Source: Octopus sinensis
Taxonomy: Eukaryota
Assembly: GCF_006345805.1 (NCBI RefSeq)
Contig: NW_021833028.1
Coordinates: 62,001 to 126,000 of the forward strand
Reading direction: 5' to 3'
DNA length: 64,000 bases
Below are positions 6,757-62,798 of this stretch, one piece after another. Both the position numbers and the translations under genes were made by a program. The notes under the pieces were generated by a model. The model saw only the letters and a program-made list of their open reading frames with translations, was not told the origin of the DNA and searched no databases. Position 1 is the stretch's first letter, and each line of letters opens with the position of its first letter.

Positions 6757-7409
6757 GATTTTTTTTTTTTTTTAATAAAAATCAATTTAATTAAAATGGG
6801 GAATAAGTTATACACGAATTAATAAAGAGCCTGGAGGTCAGCTCAAAGTCGCCGCACTGCGTATCGAGTGGCAGTTTCCGCGGAGCACTGCGACCGAGAT
6901 TCGGTGGGAGAGCCAGCTCGTCTCCCTCCGGTCGTTGGTCTTCTTGGCGATTCTCCTGGCAATGTCGGCAAGAAGGCGAGTCGCAGACCTGCCGACAATT
7001 CCAGATGTTTCGAAGGCGAGGGGGACAAACTTGTAAGAGTCCGAAATATTTCCATACTTCGACCTCTTAGCCTCCTCAGCCTGAGCACTGGCGGAACCCG
7101 GGTTAGTGATGGACTTGAGTAACACCGACGCGGAGAACGAGTCAACACAAGTTGCGTCCCAAATCAGGGACTTGCCTTCCCTGAAAGGGAAGGTAGTCAT
7201 CCCGTCAGGACGCTTTCCATCACTCCGGCAGAGACCGACTGGCTCTAGAGTGGAGGGAACCTGCCGACTCTAGAGCCCTTTTCACGACGTCATTGAGGTG
7301 ATGTGGCGAGGAATTCTGCCAGCACTCTTCTTGCACGAGAGGGCGTGCAAACCGTTCGGAGAGATCGTGGACCCGCACCGGCATGGGTGGGGCCTTTCTT
7401 TTTGGGGGT
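6757..7409 (-). mobile_element. 5'-truncated CRE-type retrotransposon with poly(A) tail
   Basis: [30 protein letters not shown]; poly(T) at left end; TSD ATATTGAA (6749-6756, 7410-7417); close inverted copy at 22444-23127. Confidence 0.9.
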
Positions 7410-7767: not shown

Positions 7768-8780
7768 TCAAAATAAACTTTTAAACATTTTGATCAATTT
7801 AGAAAGCGAATATTTAACAGATTTGTATGGACCAGCCGTCACCAATCCCTTGACTGTCTGCGAAAGACTGGCCCGGGAGACAATAGCCTTTATAGAGCTC
7901 ACAATCATCTGACGTGAAGGCTGATGAGCCAAAGTCAACAAAACTTCCTCCATGTCGGGATACTTCTGGTCGACATTCATTCTGTGCCACAACTCCAACT
8001 GCAGATTTTTAGGCAAATGATTCAAATGATGAAGTCTGGAGGAATACACGTGCTGTTGCTCGAAAATCCCCTCTTTTTGATGCCAGCACAAATGTCCTTC
8101 AAATCCATTTATAAGTGGACCGTAAAGATCTCGAAAATTCTGAATATGCCCACGAAAAATGTTTTTTATTTTATTTTTATCTTCTCCAAACTAAATAATA
8201 AATAAATAATTAAATTACAATTAATCTAAAATCGCCACTATAAGACAACCAAATAATCATGCTGAACAAATCCTCTTCACTAAACGACTCAGGAAGGAGA
8301 AGAAGCGCAGTATGCAAAGCAGAAGAAAGATTACTGTGCAAAGCAGTCTTTAAATCCTCAGGAAAAACATCCTTCAAAGCCCAAACAGGCTTTTGTAGTC
8401 TACTCCTGTTATAGACCACGTGACCTTCCACTGGCATAAAGGCAATCCCAGTCATACAAGTCGGAGATCAGGTCCTCGGATGTGATGACTCCATATTTGT
8501 AGTATAATCCTTCGTGGGGGATCAGAGTATTGTAGAACATCTTTGAGCCATGTTTACGTTGGAGATTGGCTAGTTTGGAGGGGCCTGCGAGACTGCAGAG
8601 GGAATAATGTTTAGGATTTGTTCTGAGGTTGGAGGTGTGGAAGAGGACTGCGTCTTGTACTACGACTATGAGGTCAATCATTTTGGATTGTTGAGGAAGT
8701 ATCCCAGATCCGTAGGCGAATGCCATTGTTATTGGATCAGGGAGAGTAGATAGGAAACCACGACACTTCTCAAGTGTCAT
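7768..8780 (-). CDS. TAMM41: Mitochondrial phosphatidate cytidylyltransferase Tam41
   Basis: AFAYGSG, MIDLIVVV, YKYGVI, LYASGR|LQKPV, SYSGDFR, SLSQTVKGLVTAG; introns 8400-8424 (25 nt) and 8191-8218 (28 nt) restore frame. Confidence 0.95.
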
Positions 8781-9368: not shown

Positions 9369-10169
9369 ATGGAAGTTGCTTCAGACATTCCGACATTTCA
9401 TTTCAACGGACTAGAAAATACCGAACGCCCTCCAATCGCGGAAATTAATAAAATCTTCAAAACCAAAATCCTACATGGAACAACCACCATGGCTTTCAAA
9501 TACAAAGACGGCGTGATAGTGGCTACTGATTCCCGGGCAACTGCTGGAGCAACAATCGGTATTTTCTGATTATAACTCTCAGGGTCCCAAACGGTGAAAA
9601 AAGTAATTCCGGTGACTCCCAACGTTATTGCCACTATGGCCGGAGGGGCTGCCGACTGTCAATTCTGGCTAAGAATAATGACTTCTAAGGCTCAGTAAGT
9701 TAAAAATCTCAACCCAATCAATCATAGAGCATACAGGATCCGACATAACAGAGAAATGTCAGTTGCGGCGATTTCATTAATGCTGGCCAACTCTTTGTAT
9801 CAATATAAGGGGTATGGACTCAGCATGGTAGTTTTGGGCATGGAGACTGAGTAGGGGTCGACGATTGTGGGGTATGATAAGACTGGATTCCATATTTACA
9901 TGGTGGAGGACAGTGGACTGAGATTGGAGGTCGATATGGGCGGATATGGCTCAGGATCTCCGTATGCTTATTCTGTGATGGACAATAAGTACAAGAGGAC
10001 GGATCTCCCCTTTGAGGATGCTGTCCAATTGGCGAAGGAGGCTATTTCGAATGCCACCAAATTCGATACGATGAGTGGAGGACATGCCAATATTTATTGT
10101 GTCACCAAAGATGGCTATCGACAACTTTGCTTTACTGATGTCGATGACTTATATGCCCAGGGGTTCTAA
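9369..10169 (+). CDS. PSMB5: Proteasome subunit beta type-5 (propeptide plus catalytic Thr1)
   Basis: [35 protein letters not shown]; introns 9559-9582, 9695-9727, 9828-9854. Confidence 0.95.
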
Positions 10170-13170: not shown

Positions 13171-16100
13171 ATGAATTATTCTGGAATTAAAAACGTTTCA
13201 AGTTTCACAGAACAGCCAAACCTGCTAAACGAATTTGACAGGTATTATATTTAAATATATCAGCACTTTCTACGGAATAAAGATAAGCCAGGAACTTTTA
13301 CTCCGGCTAGATCGAGTATACTCTTTCTCTCTTTTACATCAAGACTGTCAATATTTTGGAAGAACAGCTTCGTATATCAGAAATAAATGGAGCCGAAATA
13401 GCCCTCAAACTCGGCCATTTAAACCTTATTCTTAAAAGCTATCGGAAATGTAACTTTTTGATAATATTCTAAGCACTTTCTGCATATCAGTTATATTTCA
13501 AACTGAACAAAGATTCCTGGAGAAATGAAAATTTTCTCTTTGGAATAGGAATTTGCTACTACCGTTTCGGATCAATAGAAAAGTAAGTCAACATTCATTC
13601 ATATTTTAAGTGCCCTCAAAGTACTTCTTCAACTGCTGTTCGAATGCCCTCTTTTTTGTCGCTTAGTGGATGTTTATTTTATTCTGGCTCTTATATACCG
13701 CGTAAAACGGAATTATTCGAGATATTTATACGTTTTTTACTGATTGTGAGTATATTTAGTTCCTCAAACTAACTCTTCATCAATGCAAGCCTTACAGCCT
13801 CCAGTACTACGAAGGTAGGCAGTATTTTTATATTGAAATAGTCAAGCTATTCATGGTTCAAGGCTACGTTCACAAAGTTGTTAGAAACAAATGTTTTGTA
13901 GGGAAAAATCAATTTGGCTGGAAAATTTTTACAAGAAATTTTGGAATCGAGTTGTCCTCAGAAGGTCAAGTCTCAGGCGATGCTTCAAACTGGTATTTGA
14001 GTGGCATGTCAGAATAGCCTGGATGCTCTTCACTGGGATAGACATGTCGGGAATTGCCAGGAAGGATGAGGTCGAGGACTACCTCCGTCTGGCTATCATG
14101 TCTGACCCCTCCAACATCACTGCCTGGTACTTCTTCGGGCGGTAGGCGTAAGTGGACTATTCAGTAGATATAACTCAGAAGTAGGCAATATTGGGCTGGC
14201 CTTGGATATTTATCTTAGCACAGTGGATAACATTTGGGGTACCTCCAAGATGTGGTGTTCTGTCGGGTTGTCTACTTTATCAGCATTTCAGACTTCTCTA
14301 TCACGGACAAAACCAGCACAGCGACGCCTTGCAAGCATATGTGTGTGCATTGAAATTAAATCATTGCGATGCTGGCACGTGGATAAATATGGCCATTCTG
14401 TATGAGCAGAACATGCAGATTAACGACGCCGTCGAGTGCTATCGCCATGCACTCAAGTATTCTAGTGAGTGCTTGTTTTGCTCATTTGAAGCACAAAAGC
14501 AACAAATTCGTAGCAAAATATACTCCCTGGCCAGCCATAACGTAGTTCCACGACAAAACAAGTCGTTTTGTTTCAATTTTTAGGCTTCTCTCAATCCGTG
14601 AGGTTGTAAACGACGTTTTTTTCAAATCGGTAATTCATAAGAAAGTTGTTCTTTGATTGTTCCAATTTAGTTGAGGAATGACGGCGGAGAGTACACCAAA
14701 TTGCTGTTTAAAAAGACTTCAACTGTCTATTGCGTTGATCTGTCGTTTAATCGTGGTAGGAGAATTTATCTGAGTTGTCCAGTCGGCTTTACAGTTTCGG
14801 ACTTAGTCAAGAAAATATTGACAATCTAAAAAAAATGGAGGGAGTGCCTTTAAATTCGCTTGTCGTTTTTTTGGTAATTTTTTTAGTCAGATACGTTTCT
14901 CCGTGGATATGCCTTGATCTGTCGGTCTGACGAGTTGGTTTGCCCTTCAACCCGGTTTTTTGATGCTGAGGAAGTATTGTTGTTATATCAGTAATACAAG
15001 CTATCACACAAATCTTGTTCTCATTACGGAATCGACTCGAGTGATTTAAAAATGCTTCCAACGGGTATTTTTGTGGCTAATTTGTTGATGTCGGATGTAT
15101 TTCAGAGAAGTCTCCTTTTAATAACTCGTCCATCAAGTCTTTGGGAATTCCGTTGCAAAGACGTACCAAAATAATTAATGTGATTTATATTCTTTATTTT
15201 TAGTTTGATTCCAAGTTGGAGTCAGCCTGGATTGAGCTCAGAAATATTTGTTATCGAAATGACTGCGCTGTGATTAAAAATTTATGTTTGCATACAAAAT
15301 TTGGTAGATTTATTGAAATATCCAGATTGTTCTGCATTTTCTTCATCTTTGTTACAAAAGTTGATTGCACAGAGAGAAACATTAGTAAAAATCCACGTTT
15401 ATTCCAAATTTACAACTGTTGGTAGGCCTATCATGGGACTCCAGAAGAGAACGGGGATTTTAGTGGGGAGAATGGATGGAGAATGACACAAAAACATATC
15501 AAATCAGACGTGTTTCGTTCTGCAGCTTATCAATTTCGTAGTTTCAAAGATGCGTCAAAAGTTTGTGAAATATGCGTCATTCTAAGGCCGAATCGTGCGG
15601 ATTGGAAATATCGGATTCTTTTCAGGACAAGGAAATCCACATATCCAACGTTGAGCTTTTTGCTGAAGGAGAATCCAGTAATTTATGGTCCCAACAAAAG
15701 CATGAACTTGACAAATTTCCGTCATTTTTGAGGGTCTTTTAGCTTTAAATGATTTTAGATAAATTCGAAATTAAATATGCTCACGTATATTAATTATTGG
15801 CCTGTTCACGCTGGGCCTTGTTTAAATATGCTTGTGCCGGGTTCTCGGCTTACTGGTTTGTTTACTTTTTTATTCCCAGCTCGCCGAACTTTAGGGGGGT
15901 TAGTGTCCGTTTATCTCAATACGGGACCTGGGAATGTCGAGTGGTTTTGTATTCCGAGCGAATTTTCATCCGAATTTAATTCTGCCTGCGAATTGTTGTA
16001 AATTATGTACTAAGAATTAGTTATGGGATGAGCTGTTTTGACTCCAATTCTTCGATATGGCCAAATCTGGATTCGTTGGGCGAATTGAATATTCCATATC

Positions 16101-16785
16101 ATCGATTTATTCAAAAAAGTGGGGATTTAATCTGGCTGAATTCTGGCTGCATTTATTACTTCCAATCTCATGTGGATTTTCGTTTGATAAAATAGGGCTG
16201 GGCGAACACGGTCTCTTGGTGTTTGGCACCAATGACGCGCCAGCACTTGCAATCGATCGTAGCGTGTTATGAATTTGACAGATATAACTATTATAAGCAG
16301 ACTGTCCCAGCTGTACATTTGTGTTGGACACTGAGACAGTCACTGCGATTTGTCGATGAACAGTTTTTTAGTATTGTCAAGTATTTTTTACATATATTCG
16401 AGAAATGTGTTGTGGAATTCTCTAATGAAGTGCCAAAGAATTTCCGAATATGTGATTTCCGCTGGGTATCAGTCCAGGATGAAGAGAATGAGTGATCACT
16501 GTTTTAAAGACGATAAGTTTAGAGTCTATTTTTGCATTGTTTGCCGGGTTGTGGGTTTTACTTTGACTTGGATAGTGTGAAATATTCAATTTTATATTCG
16601 CGCCTGTAGATTCGAGTGATATTTCTGTCAATCACTCATCAATGAGTGACAAGATTACTGTGAGTGTAATGTGTCATCGTTGTGTTCTTCAACGGTACTC
16701 CAATTTAGATAATGTGATTATAATTATGGATCGAGAAATGAGCGAATTAACGAATATTCATGATTCATTCCAACGTGTTGTTTAA
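13171..16785 (+). CDS. KDM6A: KDM6/UTX orthologue (TPR + JmjC + Zn finger); JmjC catalytic residues substituted
   Basis: LGHLNLIL, LSAYQ, WYFFGR, WCSVG|LLY, DALQAYVCA, VPGSR, GPGNVEWF, RFIQKSGDLIWLN, CIVC..CHRC; many 22-35 nt introns; linker 14600-15200 not fully resolved. Confidence 0.92.
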
Positions 16786-22443: not shown

Positions 22444-23127
22444 AAGAGTGCTGGCAGAATTCCTCGCCACACTTACCTCAATGACGTCGTGAAAAGGGCA
22501 CTGAGTCGGCAGGTTTCCCCTTCACTCTAGAGCCAGTCGGTCTCTGTCGGAGTGATGGAAAGCGTCCTGACGGGATGACTACCTTCCCTTTCAGGGAAGG
22601 CAAGTCCCTGATTTGGAATGCAACTTGTGTTTGACTCGTTCTCCGCGACGATGTTACTTAAGTCCATCACTAACCGGGTCTGCCAGTGCTCAGGCTGAGG
22701 AGGCTAAGAGGTCGAAGTACGGAAGTATTCCGGACTCTTACGAGTTTGTGCCCCTCGCCTTCGAAACATCTGGAATCGTCGGCAAGTCTGCGACTCGCCT
22801 TCTTTCCGACATTGCCAGGAGAATTGCCAGGAGACCAACGACCGGAGGGAGACGAGCTGGCTCTTCCAGCGAATCTCGGTCGCGGTGCTCCGCGGAAACT
22901 GCCACTCGATACGCAGTGCGGCGACTTTGAGCTGACCTCCAGGCTCTTATAAATTCGTGAATAACTATGGTATTTGTCGAACTTATGGTACTTTTGTCGA
23001 TTATAAATTAAATATCTATTTTTTCACTAAAAAAATTAATTAATTTTAATTATCTTCTAAAAAAACTGCGACCACTTCGACAAAAGTACCTAACTTATTC
23101 CCTGAATCAAACCTAATAAATAAAAAA
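22444..23127 (+). mobile_element. 5'-truncated CRE-type retrotransposon, close copy of 6757-7330
   Basis: Near-identical reverse complement of 6800-7330; A-rich tail; probable TSD AATAGTTT. Confidence 0.88.
22987..23090. mobile_element. Small MITE (Merlin-like) in CRE 3' UTR
   Basis: 14-bp perfect TIR GGTACTTTTGTCGA; flanks GAACTTAT/TAACTTAT; absent from sister CRE copy. Confidence 0.7.
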
Positions 23128-23182
23128 AATAGTTTTATTTTTTTTCGTTTAAATTGTCAATATAAAAAAACTATTATTTGAC

Positions 23183-24219
23183 ATGGACAAACAGGTCCTA
23201 TGTAATGAAGTTTAAAAATTAATTAACATTTAACAGTTATTTATTAATTAACATTTGAAAATTCGGCCATTCTCGCGCGGAAATCTCGCTCTGTCTACTG
23301 TCGATCCTGGGCACTCTTTGAGGCTGGCCGAAGGTAGCAAGATTCCTAAATTTCAGAGCTGCAGTCTATATAAAACAATGGAAGTAACATTCTACTAGGA
23401 AAGAAGTAAATAAAACTTTTCAAACAAAAAAGCCAATTTTAGGTAAAACAAATGCTCCCGACGAAAGCTGTAATGAATTTTTGTATTAAAATATCAGATA
23501 CAAATAATAACATCAAAATTTCCCAGATTGCCAATAACGCCATCATTGGTTTTTCTGGGAACATGTATGTTTTGGATTTCTTGGAGCAAGAATTTTCTCG
23601 TTATTTTCTGTATTTTTTGAATTAATTTGTTTTCTAGACGGTCTTGGGATGTATATCCAATGTTTTTGAAAGATTTCATTAAAAAAATTCTATCAAATTT
23701 CATACTTCCACACCAATTATCGGTATATTTGAGTTCTTGTTATATTTTTAGACCGTTATTCTCTTATGTGTCCATAATGCAGGAATTTATCAATTTGCAA
23801 TAAATTCCTTCTCAACTGTAGACTGCACATGTCGCGTTACGACAATCGGGTCAGGCGGAATAAGGACGCGTACTTGGATAAATATGCAGTATTTTCTTTT
23901 ATAATCATTGCCAGTTATCGTGGAATTCATACAACACAGAGTGAGGCTATTGAGTTAGCCCACAATGCCATTAAACATGCAGCACTGACTGATCGATTTA
24001 CTGGAGGATTTTCCAATAGTATATTTGCATATATAATACTTTAGTTGAATTTATAATTTATGAATTTATAAATGAATATAATGAGGAAAGTTAATTATTA
24101 TATATTTAAGATATGAATATGTTTATATTAATAAAATTTAAATAAATTATTAGTATACTTTAGTTTATACAATCTCGATTCTTGGAATAAATTTTGTCGT
24201 CCTTTTTCAGCTTTTTTAA
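23183..24219 (+). CDS. Divergent proteasome beta5-like paralogue lacking propeptide and Thr1
   Basis: Spliced ORF with SAILARKSR, IKISQIANNAIIGFSG, TTIGSGG, EAIELAHNAIKHAALTDRFTGG; three introns match PSMB5 phases; 5' exon structure less certain. Confidence 0.72.
24061..24157 (+). repeat. 97-bp direct copy of 25041-25138 (RPL41 upstream region)
   Basis: Identical apart from one A; insert flanked by duplicated ATACTTTAGTT. Confidence 0.9.
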
Positions 24220-24845: not shown

Positions 24846-25146
24846 GGACTTTATTTCCACTAATTTTAAATTATCGATTGAAGTAACACTCACTTCCACA
24901 TTAATTGGCTTATTTGTAGAGAAATATATTAGATTTCTATTTCAAAAGTGATAGAGCATGCTCATTAATTACTCTTAAGTCGATAAGCTTACTTTCCTAA
25001 AGTCTTCCTATACACTTTTGTACTTCCTTTTTAATATTTTTGAATTTATAAATGAATATAATGAGGAAAGTTAATTATTATATATTTAAGATATGAATAT
25101 GTTTAATATTAATAAAATTTAAATAAATTATTAGTATAACGTGTTG

Positions 25147-25585: not shown

Positions 25586-28399
25586 ATGGAGTCTTGTGAG
25601 TTCACGTGCAAAATAATCGAAAGTATAAAGAATTTTAAAGTATTAAATTCATTTAATAAAAGAACGAAATTGAAGATAATATCAAATACGAGAACTTGAA
25701 GTCTGCAATAAGAAATCATCTTAGCCGGCCTTTAAAAAACATTATCAAATCAGTAGACACACTCTCATCTCAAGAAAATGCTCACAACATTTTTTTCGAC
25801 ATTATCCGCCTGGATATTGGCAATGTTTCAGAGAATTCTATTCTTCTTCGTGCTTATTTCGTCATAGTTCTCCAGTTTGACTGGCTAGATTACTTTATCA
25901 AAGTAATTTACTCAAAAAACTCTTAGAAAAGTGGTTCGTTGAGCCCCGCTGAGCAAATTCCACTTTACGCGAATCTTATTTCTGTCTTAAACGAAAGTGA
26001 ACCTGGAAATTCGCTGTTTCCGGCAAAATTTCAGCAAATTTTTATTTTCATATTTTCCGATGAAAACAGCTTTGTTTTTAAAAAACCGGAAACTGATTAT
26101 TTCACTTTGATTGAGGCCGCAATGACCACATTGATGGATAGATTTACTCCCAAATTCGTGCTCAAAATATACCTGAACTACTCTCTGCTTCTCAATCAAC
26201 AGGAATTAAAATTTTTCGATATTTTTACCCGCAATGTTGGCATTTTAGTCAAAAATGGACGGGTTGGTCTTGATTTTGTACTTTCTCTAATCCTCGATAT
26301 GTTTTTAAAAGTCGATTCCTCTTCTTTTGCTCAGTTTCTGGTCCTTCGCAGTGTTCCTGTCAATTTCTCATTTTATAAGTGCATTGAGCCTTTGATAAAA
26401 TTCTTTGATTTGTCAACCAGTGACCTCATAAACCAGCTTCCGTGGGAACCAAGACAAGTTTTATTGTCCGTCAAGTCGGTTGTTGGGCTGTGTGGAGGAT
26501 CTGTACCAACCTGTGGAGATATTTTATGTTGGCTACTCGAATTTATTCCCGGAAAGACCTCAAAGAATGAAGTTATGAGGGAAATGTATCTCTCGTCTGA
26601 TCATTGCTTAGTTTTGATGCCATTCATTCAGCATTCAATCAGAATTTCCGAATATTTGAGGATATTTCGACCTGGCTGCTCCTCACCGACTTGATGAGAC
26701 TATTTAAGGACCAGGGTGGACATCGAGTTAAATTTTCTGGTTAATTTTAGTTATTACGGGATCTTTTTAAAAAACAGTCCCCCAAATTCCGGTCCTCACT
26801 CCCTCCCTTGGAATGTCCGTTGGATATCGAGACTTTGTGTGAGAAGGGACTATCGACTTGTAGTGATTGGTCATTGGAGTGGTCATTTTTTGCTTCTTAT
26901 TACAAAACTGCGGTCAGACTGGTTCAAGAATTTATTAAAGCTAAACCAGAACACGTCAATTTGACTAGAATTTGCAGAGAATTTACCAAAAGGACTGATT
27001 TGCTGAGAATTTTGGGAGAAAATGTAACAGTCTTCTGTTCAGACGAGTCCCTGTTAACAAGTCGACTCGAGTTTTTGATTTCTGTTTTGTAATTTTTGAT
27101 ATTTTTAGAAAAATTGTCTCGTCGATGGATTTTTGGACAGTTTTTATGATTTGGTTGTCGCCCCTGTGATTGATGCATGTTCCCTCAACAGTCCCAAGTC
27201 GGCAATTTATTCCACTCTTACTGTTGCAGAGGTAGACTACTCAAATGACTATTTTAGACTTTTTGTGTCAGCTGTGATAAGAATACGACTGAAGTTGTCA
27301 AGTTTATACTTTATTTGTTGGATTTCACTCATTTTTTGTTCAAAAACTCAGAGAGTGGTGAGATGGTGCCCAATCCTTCCCACTTTATGTACGTCAAAAG
27401 TAGGGTTTTGGGGTCTTTGGTGTGCATTTCTAAGGTGGAGACAGTCCGCGAAGCTGTTTCAAGTTGATTGCAAATAAATCGAATTTAGACGTGTTAAATG
27501 ACATTCATTCCCCCACACTTTTGACTCATTTCTACGTAAAACAAATATTCGGAATATCGTCACACAAACTGACAACCCAGTTGACTATGTTTGCTAATAT
27601 TTAGTGAGTTGTCTGGACAGGATTGCCTGGGAGTGGCCGATCTGGTAAACCTTGCTCGCTCTGGCTGTTTACAAGCACACGTTAAGGTGGATTACTGTCA
27701 TTTGCTGTTGGCTGTTTCGTCAGTTAATGACTTTTGGGGTTGATTTTGATAGATTGTGCCGCATTGCACGTCTCGGGAGTTTAGATCAGTTGTCGAATTC
27801 TGTTCTTCTCTCATCTGTCCAGACACCTGTTGTGAAAACCATTTGGCATGTATTATTCAATATTCTGACCCACTAATAGCTGCAGCCACGTTTTCGTCAG
27901 TTTCGACATTCTTGTGTCATTTGATGTCTGTGCTGTTGCCCAATTTGTCTGATTTTGGCGACTATCGACGACAGCTTACGGGATATTATTTAAGCTTCGT
28001 TCGAGTTAGTTTATGTGCTGATTGGACAGAAGAAATTGTTGGTGGATGCTCAGTGTTTTGTCAATGAGACGATTCGAGGACTAGTGCTGGACGAATTGAA
28101 GCATCAGCTTACTAATCTTGTTGCGTTGCTGATGGACAGGGACTGTGATGAATTCTCTATGATCAACTCGGTTATTTTTTCGTTGACTCAATGAGTTTTT
28201 GAATGTGTGGTTTTTTGAGGGGTTTAAAATATGCGACTGAGTTAAAATTTTTTGTTAATTTGAGTAGCTATGGACTTTTTTATAACACTGATTTTCACTG
28301 AATGATTTAATTATGTAATAATTTTGCTCAGCTGAGTATCCTCGTGACATGCCAGCTCCGCAAGTTGATCTTCGTTATCAACCTGGATTATTGAATTAA
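25586..28399 (+). CDS. Uncharacterised multi-exon protein (Leu/Phe-rich, probably helical)
   Basis: Successive open exons joined by GT-AG micro-introns; 3' exons not fully resolved; no family recognised. Confidence 0.6.
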
Positions 28400-60633: not shown

Positions 60634-61576
60634 ATGTATTTAAAGATTTGTAAATGTATAGTGATTGTTATATTCGGCACGCTGCTATTAATAAATTTTT
60701 CAAAATACGAAGAATCAGTATCATTTATAAAATATAGTTTTAAAGTTCGACACCATAGAAAGTTCAGAAGGAGAGAAAGAAGGCGAGAAAATAGTACTCG
60801 TGAGTGCTTACTACGTGATTGATTCCTTCACAAAAGTCGGCGGAAAAATCCGCACAAAGGAAAACTATTACACGTGGTTAGATCGATTCCGTTTTATAAA
60901 CAACGACCTGATATTCTTTTCCGACAGTTATGAACCATTGCGTCATGTGAGGAAGATAAGAAAGTCGAAACCAACATTACTCCTGTTCCTAAACCGATCA
61001 GAACTTATCGGATTCAAAAACATTGACAAAATAAATCACATATTCACACTCCCTGGATATCGACGGGATTTAACCGAAACAGCAAACTGCCACTACTCGG
61101 CTATCATGCACTCCAAGCATGACCTGATTGAACGAGCTATTAAATTGGGTGGAAATTTGTCTTATTATGCGTGGGTCGACGCCGGGTTGTTCCGCTATAC
61201 TCCCTTTTCTGAAGACGTCATATTGAGGGCCAACAAATACATAGACAAGACACGGTTGGTGATGTCCCAGATCTATGACTTCCGTGACTACTCTATTGAG
61301 GAAATTACCAAGGGTCCCCATATTTGGGTCTCAGGGGGGTTTTTGGTGGGATATGTCAATGTTTTGCTCAAGTTTTGCGAAGTTTACAGAAATTTCTTTT
61401 TTAAATTGCTGTCGATGAACTTGATAGCCACTGACGAACAAGCTATCTACTCGCTCTATTCGAGTCAGGGAAGGGCTCTTATGAATGACAGTGTCAAGTT
61501 ACAAGTTTTTCAATGTCAATATTTCGGACTATATTCCCTGTTTGGTAGAGTTGTTGCGGTTGAAAGCTGTCCATAA
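60634..61576 (+). CDS. HtrL/YibB (WlaTC)-like putative glycosyltransferase, type II membrane protein
   Basis: N-terminal TM, 28-nt intron 60718-60745, then LVSAYY, YSAIMHSKHDL, YAWVDAGLFR, VSGGFLVG, TDEQAIY. Confidence 0.75.
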
Positions 61577-61747: not shown

Positions 61748-62798
61748 ATGTCAGATACGAAACAATTCAGGTGTGAATCTTATGTTAAATATGGATTCAC
61801 AAAATATCTATTTTTTGAAAACAATTTTGATAAGGCTTAATGCATGATTTGCCATAGCATTCTTAACAATACTTCACTTAAGCCGGCAAAGTTAAAAAGG
61901 CATCTGGAGTCTGGTGATCTATATTAAAACTTAGCTTTGAGGAGTTCTCCGCTAAGCAAAAAATTTATCATTCCACGCCAAAAATAACTTCTTTTTTTTC
62001 AATCCAAACCTACTGTTTGCACACAATAGGAGGTTTTTTTCTTTTTTAATTTAAAGATAGCTTATATACAGTGCCTGACAAAAAAATTGGATTTGTAATA
62101 AATCGATTTTTTTTAAAAATAAATTATAATTTAATTTTCTTACATCATTCTTGGTAAAAATACAATCATTTTTTAATTTTTAAAATTATTTTTGGCTTTT
62201 AGAATTTAATTCTATGCAGAATTTAAAATTTGCCGGACAAAAAAATTGGATTTGGACCAAAAAATTGGATTTTCGTATAAATGAAGCTTAATTCAAAAAT
62301 CCATTTATCTGATTTTTGATGAAACAATACAATACAATTAATCTCGAGTGATGAACCCTCAATTTCTGCTGTGTCTCTTTCTGAGATAACAAAAACTCAA
62401 TTTAATGTGGACGTATTTCCCAGAACAATTGGTCGTATACTAAATTCATTTGGATTACATGCCCGAGTTGCAAAACACTTTGTCAGTTGGTTTTTGTACG
62501 TTTTGTCGAGGCAAACAAAATCGTTGAGGATTTTCTTTTTTGTATCGAGCTGAATGGAAGAACATGAGTTCAGGATATTTTTGCTGTTCTTGACAAATTT
62601 ATAGAACTTAACTTTATTGACTTGAATAAAGTCCGATCAATTTGCACTGACGGAGCTCCTTCAATGCTTGGATATCGGTCAGGAAAAAAATAAGATTTGA
62701 TTTAATTCTTGATTAAGATAAAATCGATAGTAGAGGGTCCCTGAAATTTTTTTAAAGCACTTTGAGGGTCCCCATTAAAAAAAGGTTGAGAAACCCTG
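61748..62798 (+). mobile_element. hAT remnant split by Tc1 fragment
   Basis: YVKYGF..CMIC..LKPAKLKRHL; ICTDGAPSMLG; right TIR GGTTGAGAAACCCTG. Confidence 0.7.
62069..62480 (+). mobile_element. Tc1 left end with internal deletion, same family as 1-1139
   Basis: TA-CAGTGCCTGACAAAA; high similarity to reverse complement of 555-1139. Confidence 0.88.

Follow-up and report, generated by a model that had tools for sequence, protein, structure and literature searches.

The window analysed here, a stretch of 64,000 nucleotides, is eukaryotic and carries many transposon remains. Its 49 predicted introns have a median length of 25 nt (range 22–38 nt); as this training set was drawn from a search restricted to introns of 20–40 nt, it gives no measure of how rare longer introns are. 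Among animals, introns this short belong only to myxobolid myxozoans and a dicyemid, according to an excerpt of PMC13644364, which makes an origin of the window in one of these groups plausible. The features on which the analysis centres are collected in Table 1. An intact proteasome beta5 gene (PSMB5) lies head to head with TAM41, which aligns without a break over residues 9–317 and has an insect protein as its best match (38%). The last exon of PSMB5 is 49% identical to its best relative among cluster representatives, and a homologue search with the same exon at the very strict cut-off of E 1e-15 retained none of 35 candidates. Elsewhere in the window are a KDM6/UTX-like gene (13644–16785, +) with TPR, JmjC and C-terminal helical domains and about 20 predicted introns of 22–35 nt, a spliced frame of about 600 codons (25586–27584, +) with a weak Thg1 match only (E 3.5e-4), and a 281-codon frame (60731–61576, +) with a Pfam match to HtrL_YibB (E 2e-7), a family described as bacterial. 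Positions 23183–24219 hold a further gene, hereafter the candidate gene: it is a genuine proteasome beta-subunit gene, but in the assembled sequence its frame is blocked close to the beginning.

Table 1 Features of the candidate gene and its neighbours in the window (residue numbers are those of mature beta5; z, score against shuffled sequences)
Feature	Position	Strand	Remarks
TAM41	7768–8780	−	Head to head with PSMB5 (9369–10169, +), gap ~590 nt
PSMB5, intact	9369–10169	+	Short propeptide (37 residues), Thr1, Asp17, Lys33; introns 9559–82, 9695–9727, 9828–54; likely sister copy
Repeat fragment	22444–22966	+	94% like 6806–7329; ends ~220 nt before ATG 23183
Putative first exon	23183–23201 (donor 23202) or to 23209 (donor 23210)	+	Short extension, no recognisable propeptide; tentative
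Putative first intron	23202–23236, 35 nt; alternative 23210–23236, 27 nt	+	From intron scores
14-nt direct repeat	23218–31 (in putative first intron) and 23243–56	+	From repeat listing
TAA at mature position 5, LTFENS frame	23245–23247	+	From reading frame
Beta5 residues 6–19, first strands	23248–23289	+	Lys at 17; Ser18-Arg19 kept; z 5.0
Region after Arg19	23290–23469	+	158 nt more than PSMB5; insert of 5–31 residues
Intron, codon 27, phase 1	23470–23497	+	As in PSMB5 and loci L003 and L075
112-nt exon, residues 27–64	23498–23609	+	Lys33, Gly47 kept; length equals PSMB5 exon 2; z 4.5 (residues 28–63)
Intron, codon 64, phase 2	23610–23637	+	As in PSMB5
85-nt exon	23638–23722	+	Shorter by five codons than the PSMB5 exon; least similar segment, z 2.0 (best of 10 registers)
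Phase-0 intron, codon 97 or 98	23723–23751	+	PSMB5: 98
Exon with GSG motif (129–131)	23752–23888	+	z 1.9 (residues 98–112) and 3.0 (residues 113–141)
Intron, phase 2	23889–23914	+	Absent from PSMB5
Best-conserved exon, residues 143–176	23915–24018	+	His163, Asp168, Gly172-Gly173; z 8.4
Original last intron, 26 nt, phase 1, codon 177	24019–24044	+	Absent from PSMB5
108-nt AT-rich repeat	24047–24154	+	Inserted 2 nt into last exon; second copy 25030–25138
Last exon (residues 177–194) and TAA	24164–24219	+	Reached by distal acceptor only; z 3.4 (residues 178–194)

An earlier note on this DNA had described the candidate gene as an open frame interrupted by seven introns. The six introns for which it gave both ends all run from GT to AG at those coordinates, and the seventh, starting at 24019, can end at 24163 and lead into a last exon closed by TAA 24217–19. 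The open frame itself does not survive inspection: from ATG 23183 the model reads MDKQVLCNE-LFIN-stop, and its 689 nt are not a multiple of three. The DNA after acceptor 23236 holds one base fewer than LFINLTFENS needs, the note having included one base in excess. The frame that encodes LTFENSAILARKSR starts at 23248, with a TAA just upstream, and is shifted by one base relative to the frame of ATG 23183 in that model; from 23248 onwards the same introns leave 216 codons open to the terminal TAA. Two donors are available to the putative first intron, of which 23202 scores better (4.0, versus 2.1 for 23210). With donor 23202, LTFENSAILARKSR lies in frame behind a single TAA at mature position 5, whereas donor 23210 produces a one-base shift and a TAA at 23249–51; either way the frame is closed at 23245–51 as assembled. 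Beyond acceptor 23236 all three frames are closed by 23258 and there is no separate GT before 23293; consequently, no canonical splice links the ATG to residues 6–19, and among models from ATG 23183 with up to one intron of 20–45 nt none reaches LTFENSAILARKSR. A single base is nevertheless sufficient to open the frame from ATG 23183, in any of 25 ways (17 insertions and eight substitutions).

Other starts and decodings were considered and set aside. For a start at ATG 23452 without an intron the score is negative in each of the 13 registers, and residues 6–19 are missing from starts at ATG 23378. Stop reassignment, in which TAA would be read as sense, was rejected in view of PSMB5, KDM6 and the candidate gene all terminating in TAA. 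An imperfect inverted repeat and the 14-nt direct repeat (copies 25 nt apart) occupy 23207–23264 and overlap both the first intron and the lesion. Downstream of Arg19 the extra DNA that had been read as an additional loop is present, and the size of the loop depends on the model: across four open models the insert has 5, 21, 22 or 31 residues, and the models listed for 23290–23469 include one with a 65-nt intron, one with three tiny introns (23334–56, 23364–98, 23406–42) and one with a single 143-nt intron. One loop model for this region uses introns of 23–37 nt only.

The homology of the candidate gene to proteasome beta subunits extends along the domain (PF00227). LTFENSAILARKSR ranks third among the 59,826 stop-free 14-mers of the window when compared with beta5 residues 6–19 (the first being PSMB5 itself) and is the best of 197 in 22950–23500; six of the seven exon segments tested score in the order expected of a beta subunit, against a profile of 56 full-length matches, 53 of them beta5-type and three archaeal-type. 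Identity to the local PSMB5 is low (28 of 149 aligned residues, 19%), and the candidate gene keeps 16 of 42 near-invariant beta5 columns, compared with 36 of 42 in PSMB5. Against the PDB, the exon for residues 28–63 has no match, whereas the matching 36-residue exon of PSMB5 has 69 (best E 2e-11), which marks the candidate gene as far more diverged than PSMB5, the one ordinary subunit gene compared. Single-exon PDB searches with the exons at 23248, 23500 and 23752 returned nothing relevant (one unrelated lectin at E 1.3), and exon 23916–24017 gave three matches only, each to chain L of an entry whose name reads beta5 or beta (E 0.75–0.8). Pfam searches with five single exons gave no match. In Atlas searches the exon at 23752 had no usable match, and that at 23916 returned unnamed clusters first (0.94), followed by a set in which 21% of members carry PF00227 (0.90) and 62% PF12465 (0.87), a result that serves as a lead only.

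To assign the gene to a class, it was scored on profiles of beta5, beta6 and six archaeal-type sequences only. It scored 35–37 bits on beta5, 27–28 on a second beta5 set (n = 74), 11–12 on archaeal beta and 6–8 on beta6, the last profile being built from 103 mostly fungal beta6 sequences taken from 120 proteins seeded by the beta6 of metagenome contig L014. On that contig a beta6 frame (1–486, −), with chytrid proteins closest, and a beta5 frame (643–1332, +) stand head to head about 160 nt apart; a distant Thr-starting proteasome-like protein, 27% identical to the beta5 query, was also seen on viral contig L081 (3001–3480, +). A beta6 control scored 330 bits on the beta6 profile, 86 on beta5 and 98 on archaeal beta; as it scores higher on the archaeal profile than on beta5, the beta5 excess of the candidate gene is specific. 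The hhalign probabilities agree (beta5, 96–97%, with 96.75% over 169 columns; beta6, 12–13%). It is the C-terminal half that supplies the beta5 signal; its N-terminal counterpart yields about 2 bits on beta5 and beta6 alike. Among 20 columns that separate beta5 from beta6, the candidate gene follows beta5 in seven, beta6 in two and neither in 11. The best tree, which comprised 40 beta5, beta6 and archaeal rows with the loop removed, places it inside a beta5 branch with 100/100 support and gives it a very long end branch, 6.5 versus 0.85. The AU test does not reject a placement with beta6 (p 0.227, 5.8 log units worse), nor does it reject the candidate gene as the sister of the local PSMB5 (p 0.204), a grouping absent from the best tree.

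These comparisons bear on whether the gene could be an extremely diverged but ordinary orthologue of beta3, beta4, beta6 or beta7, or a dead beta1 or beta2, with its stop an error. A short N-terminus and the loss of Thr1 and Asp17 are typical of non-catalytic subunits, and both the AU result for beta6 and the set of classes profiled leave room for such an origin; however, a score of 6–8 bits on beta6 falls far from the 330 of a true beta6 and below the level of an orthologue, and introns and diagnostic columns point to beta5. We consider this origin improbable. The grouping against other beta subunits that the earlier note had proposed as a check was run against beta6 only, where the profiles speak clearly against beta6 and the AU test is not decisive. 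Taken together, profiles, diagnostic columns, intron positions and the best tree uphold the beta5 ancestry that had been suggested, and the candidate gene is most likely a highly diverged copy of the neighbouring beta5 gene. The second half of that suggestion, an intact hidden subunit, is unsupported, because in the assembled sequence mature position 5 carries a stop or a shift of one base and the last exon has suffered a further, recent insertion, described below.

Intron positions were compared in the same way. Three introns had been said to match those of PSMB5 in position and phase; two, 27/1 and 64/2, do so exactly and enclose 112 nt in both genes, and the third agrees in phase (0) but falls at codon 97 or 98. 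The candidate gene therefore shares beta5 intron positions, and its retention of at least five introns argues that it did not arise as a retrocopy. In human PSMB8, exon sizes place the introns at 27/1, 64/2, 108/0 and 176/1. The last of these would, we presume, correspond to the final intron of the candidate gene, which is missing from the local PSMB5, and on this match the duplication would predate the loss of that intron from PSMB5. Of 81 beta5 loci from elsewhere, only three bear introns; 27/1 occurs in two of these and 98/0 in all three. As 20–35% of the introns of LECA, the last common ancestor of eukaryotes, are common to ancient paralogues (reported in part of PMC9120149), the shared positions support the beta5 assignment without proving it.

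Alignment of residues 6–19 bears out the reported replacement of Asp17 by Lys, and the GSG and DxxTGG motifs are in place; Lys33, Gly47, GSG with its Ser, His163, Asp168 and Gly172-Gly173 are all retained, with Ser171 replaced by Thr (local numbering). The claim that propeptide and Thr1 are absent holds whichever of the 25 single-base changes is used to open the frame, each of which yields a protein with Lys17, only a short N-terminal extension and Leu, Glu, Gln, Lys or Val at position 1, and it depends on a 5′ end that is itself tentative. Read without splicing, the frame has a Thr codon at position 1 (23233–35), with His at −2; this codon falls within the putative intron, several stops precede it, and it is taken as chance or a relic. 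None of the opened models has Thr1 following a propeptide, or Asp17. Catalysis needs both residues: in yeast, beta5 T1A and D17N are crippling, T1A being lethal or nearly so (according to part of PMC4792962), and assembly has an absolute or almost absolute need of the beta5 propeptide (as an excerpt of PMC13022661 has it). From this requirement, the predicted product of the candidate gene could not cut peptides. The loss of catalysis is supported, at the level of the predicted protein, by Lys17, and Thr1 and the propeptide have probably been lost as well. With only 16 of the 42 near-invariant columns kept, it is doubtful that the product would find a place in the 20S particle.

The divergence of the candidate gene from PSMB5 carries the mark of selection on protein. 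Over 140 codons, identity at the first, second and third positions is 0.36, 0.52 and 0.27, the second being best conserved, and GC content is 0.15 in the introns and 0.35 in the exons. In neutral simulations of PSMB5, none of 1000 runs remained open at 35, 25 or 19% identity (8–11 stops were acquired), and at the divergence of the candidate gene none of 1000 kept its splice sites intact. Together with the codon-position bias, the absence of open runs indicates that the divergence occurred in a translated gene. These results largely refute a long-dead, neutrally diverged PSMB5 pseudogene or an accidental patchwork of AT-rich sequence, for which the broken frame, the transposon-rich surroundings and the lack of Pfam matches for single exons might otherwise be cited and against which the ordered similarity of the segments also speaks; we rate either origin as highly improbable. 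The same simulations bear on the age of the damage: the core stays intact under neutral change with a probability of 0.42 at 2% divergence, 0.11 at 5% and 0.015 at 10%, so that any death of the gene would have been recent.

A second alteration is present at the 3′ end. What the earlier model treated as one last intron reaching to 24163 is a 26-nt intron (24019–24044) together with a 108-nt repeat that had been missed there. The repeat is bounded by 11-nt direct repeats (24036–46 and 24155–65), which duplicate the last acceptor, and differs from a copy 980 nt downstream by three substitutions and one indel in 109 nt. The tiny intron may have been lengthened by a mobile insert. Either acceptor produces a tail of 16–17 residues, with a profile score of 7.6 for the distal and 2.0 for the proximal site; as the proximal acceptor supplies a substitute tail of 16 residues, the insertion may be tolerated. 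This second, young lesion also agrees with recent death of the gene.

The evidence on whether the 5′ lesion is real points both ways. With the better donor, 23202, the lesion is a stop codon, and hence a substitution rather than an indel, so that it looks real; TAM41 and PSMB5 are moreover unbroken. Against this, the lesion sits inside the 14-nt local repeat, and homopolymer-type indels separate repeat copies in the window: five pairs of copies, 1219 nt in all, show 14 short indels, of which 11 are homopolymer-type, a sign either of frequent indels or of errors left in the assembly. Many such indels of 1–2 nt are seen among the copies at 889–1141, 6806–7329, 22444–22966 and 62067–62316, of which the fragment at 22444–22966 is, to judge from a motif, presumably retroelement-like. 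The stop may be an assembly error or the property of one allele.

If that were so, or if an unusual splice bypassed the lesion, the gene could be intact in the organism and encode a dead beta5 paralogue that replaces beta5 in a specialised proteasome. A good deal is compatible with this: one base decides between closed and open, with Lys17 in all of the 25 single-base openings and Thr1 in none, damage spares 211 of roughly 225 codons and every downstream splice site, homopolymer-type indels are frequent between repeat copies, and a loop model exists that needs introns of the usual tiny size only (23–37 nt). However, no canonical model puts residues 6–19 behind an ATG, no comparable breaks were found in TAM41, in PSMB5 or, by eye, in one NT5C2 stretch, and the insertion at the last exon is independent of the lesion. 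The near-essential roles of the beta5 propeptide (PMC13022661, in part) and Thr1 (PMC4792962, in part) in yeast also count against it, in that a dead, propeptide-less subunit could then be only a minor or stage-limited component. We therefore regard an intact gene as rather unlikely, although deserving of serious weight. Its fullest form is more doubtful still: an animal lineage with tiny introns in which beta subunits would number eight, the additional one being a dead beta5 that lacks a propeptide and has an insert at the substrate channel, which would form part of a stage-specific proteasome lacking the chymotrypsin-like site and would be intact in the living population or a sister species.

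The explanation we favour, and hold to be on balance probable, is that of an old, non-catalytic beta5 duplicate that was recently disabled. On this account a beta5 gene would have been duplicated on the same strand, to give copies 14 kb apart, and in one duplicate Asp17 would have disappeared, probably along with Thr1 and the propeptide, with rapid evolution thereafter under constraint at the protein level. Its product would most likely have served for a long time as a non-catalytic filler of the beta ring, probably in the beta5 slot, in a proteasome restricted to a stage or cell type, from which the chymotrypsin-like site would thereby have been removed. A nonsense or one-base lesion and the insertion of a young repeat would have followed, leaving a young pseudogene or a null allele.

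Such a duplicate resembles several known systems in part. With beta5/PSMB5 (PF00227) it shares the order of motifs, Ser18-Arg19, Lys33, Gly47, GSG, His163, Asp168 and GG, and introns at 27/1, 64/2 and ~98/0, and it differs in Lys17, the insert after Arg19, 19% identity, the closed frame and the lack of Thr1 and propeptide in any near-open model. Like vertebrate beta5i (PSMB8) and beta5t (PSMB11) it would be a beta5-derived paralogue; those are active with altered specificity, whereas the candidate, judged from its predicted residues, cannot be active. Beta5i and beta5t are described as active variants, and beta5t as fast evolving, in an excerpt of PMC12650242. Beta3, beta4, beta6 and beta7 likewise combine the beta fold with the absence of a catalytic N-terminus, but they are ancient, conserved and fixed members of the ring, whereas the candidate, at 6–8 bits on beta6, would be a lineage-level offshoot of beta5 whose incorporation is putative. 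Drosophila offers invertebrate duplicates of core subunits, testis-specific ones with restricted expression (reported in part of PMC6154878), to which the candidate would be comparable as a duplicate. Few pseudogenes occur among proteasome duplicates, according to a portion of bioRxiv 10.64898/2026.09.09.750301. No dead beta5 paralogue was found in the titles and abstract openings of the literature searched, which, with most subscription journals outside it, is weak evidence of novelty.

The beta5 paralogues covered by the reviews cited here retune the active site, and in yeast both the activity and the propeptide of beta5 are close to essential (PMC12650242, PMC4792962 and PMC13022661, each in part). 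If a beta5 copy without Asp17 was kept for long, it would amount to a natural experiment on whether shutting down the main site is a way to specialise a proteasome, and equally on whether a subunit without the beta5 propeptide can enter the ring. If the gene is dead here, it would say little about the present proteasome of the organism; it would stand as the record of such an experiment, and predicts that an intact version exists in relatives.
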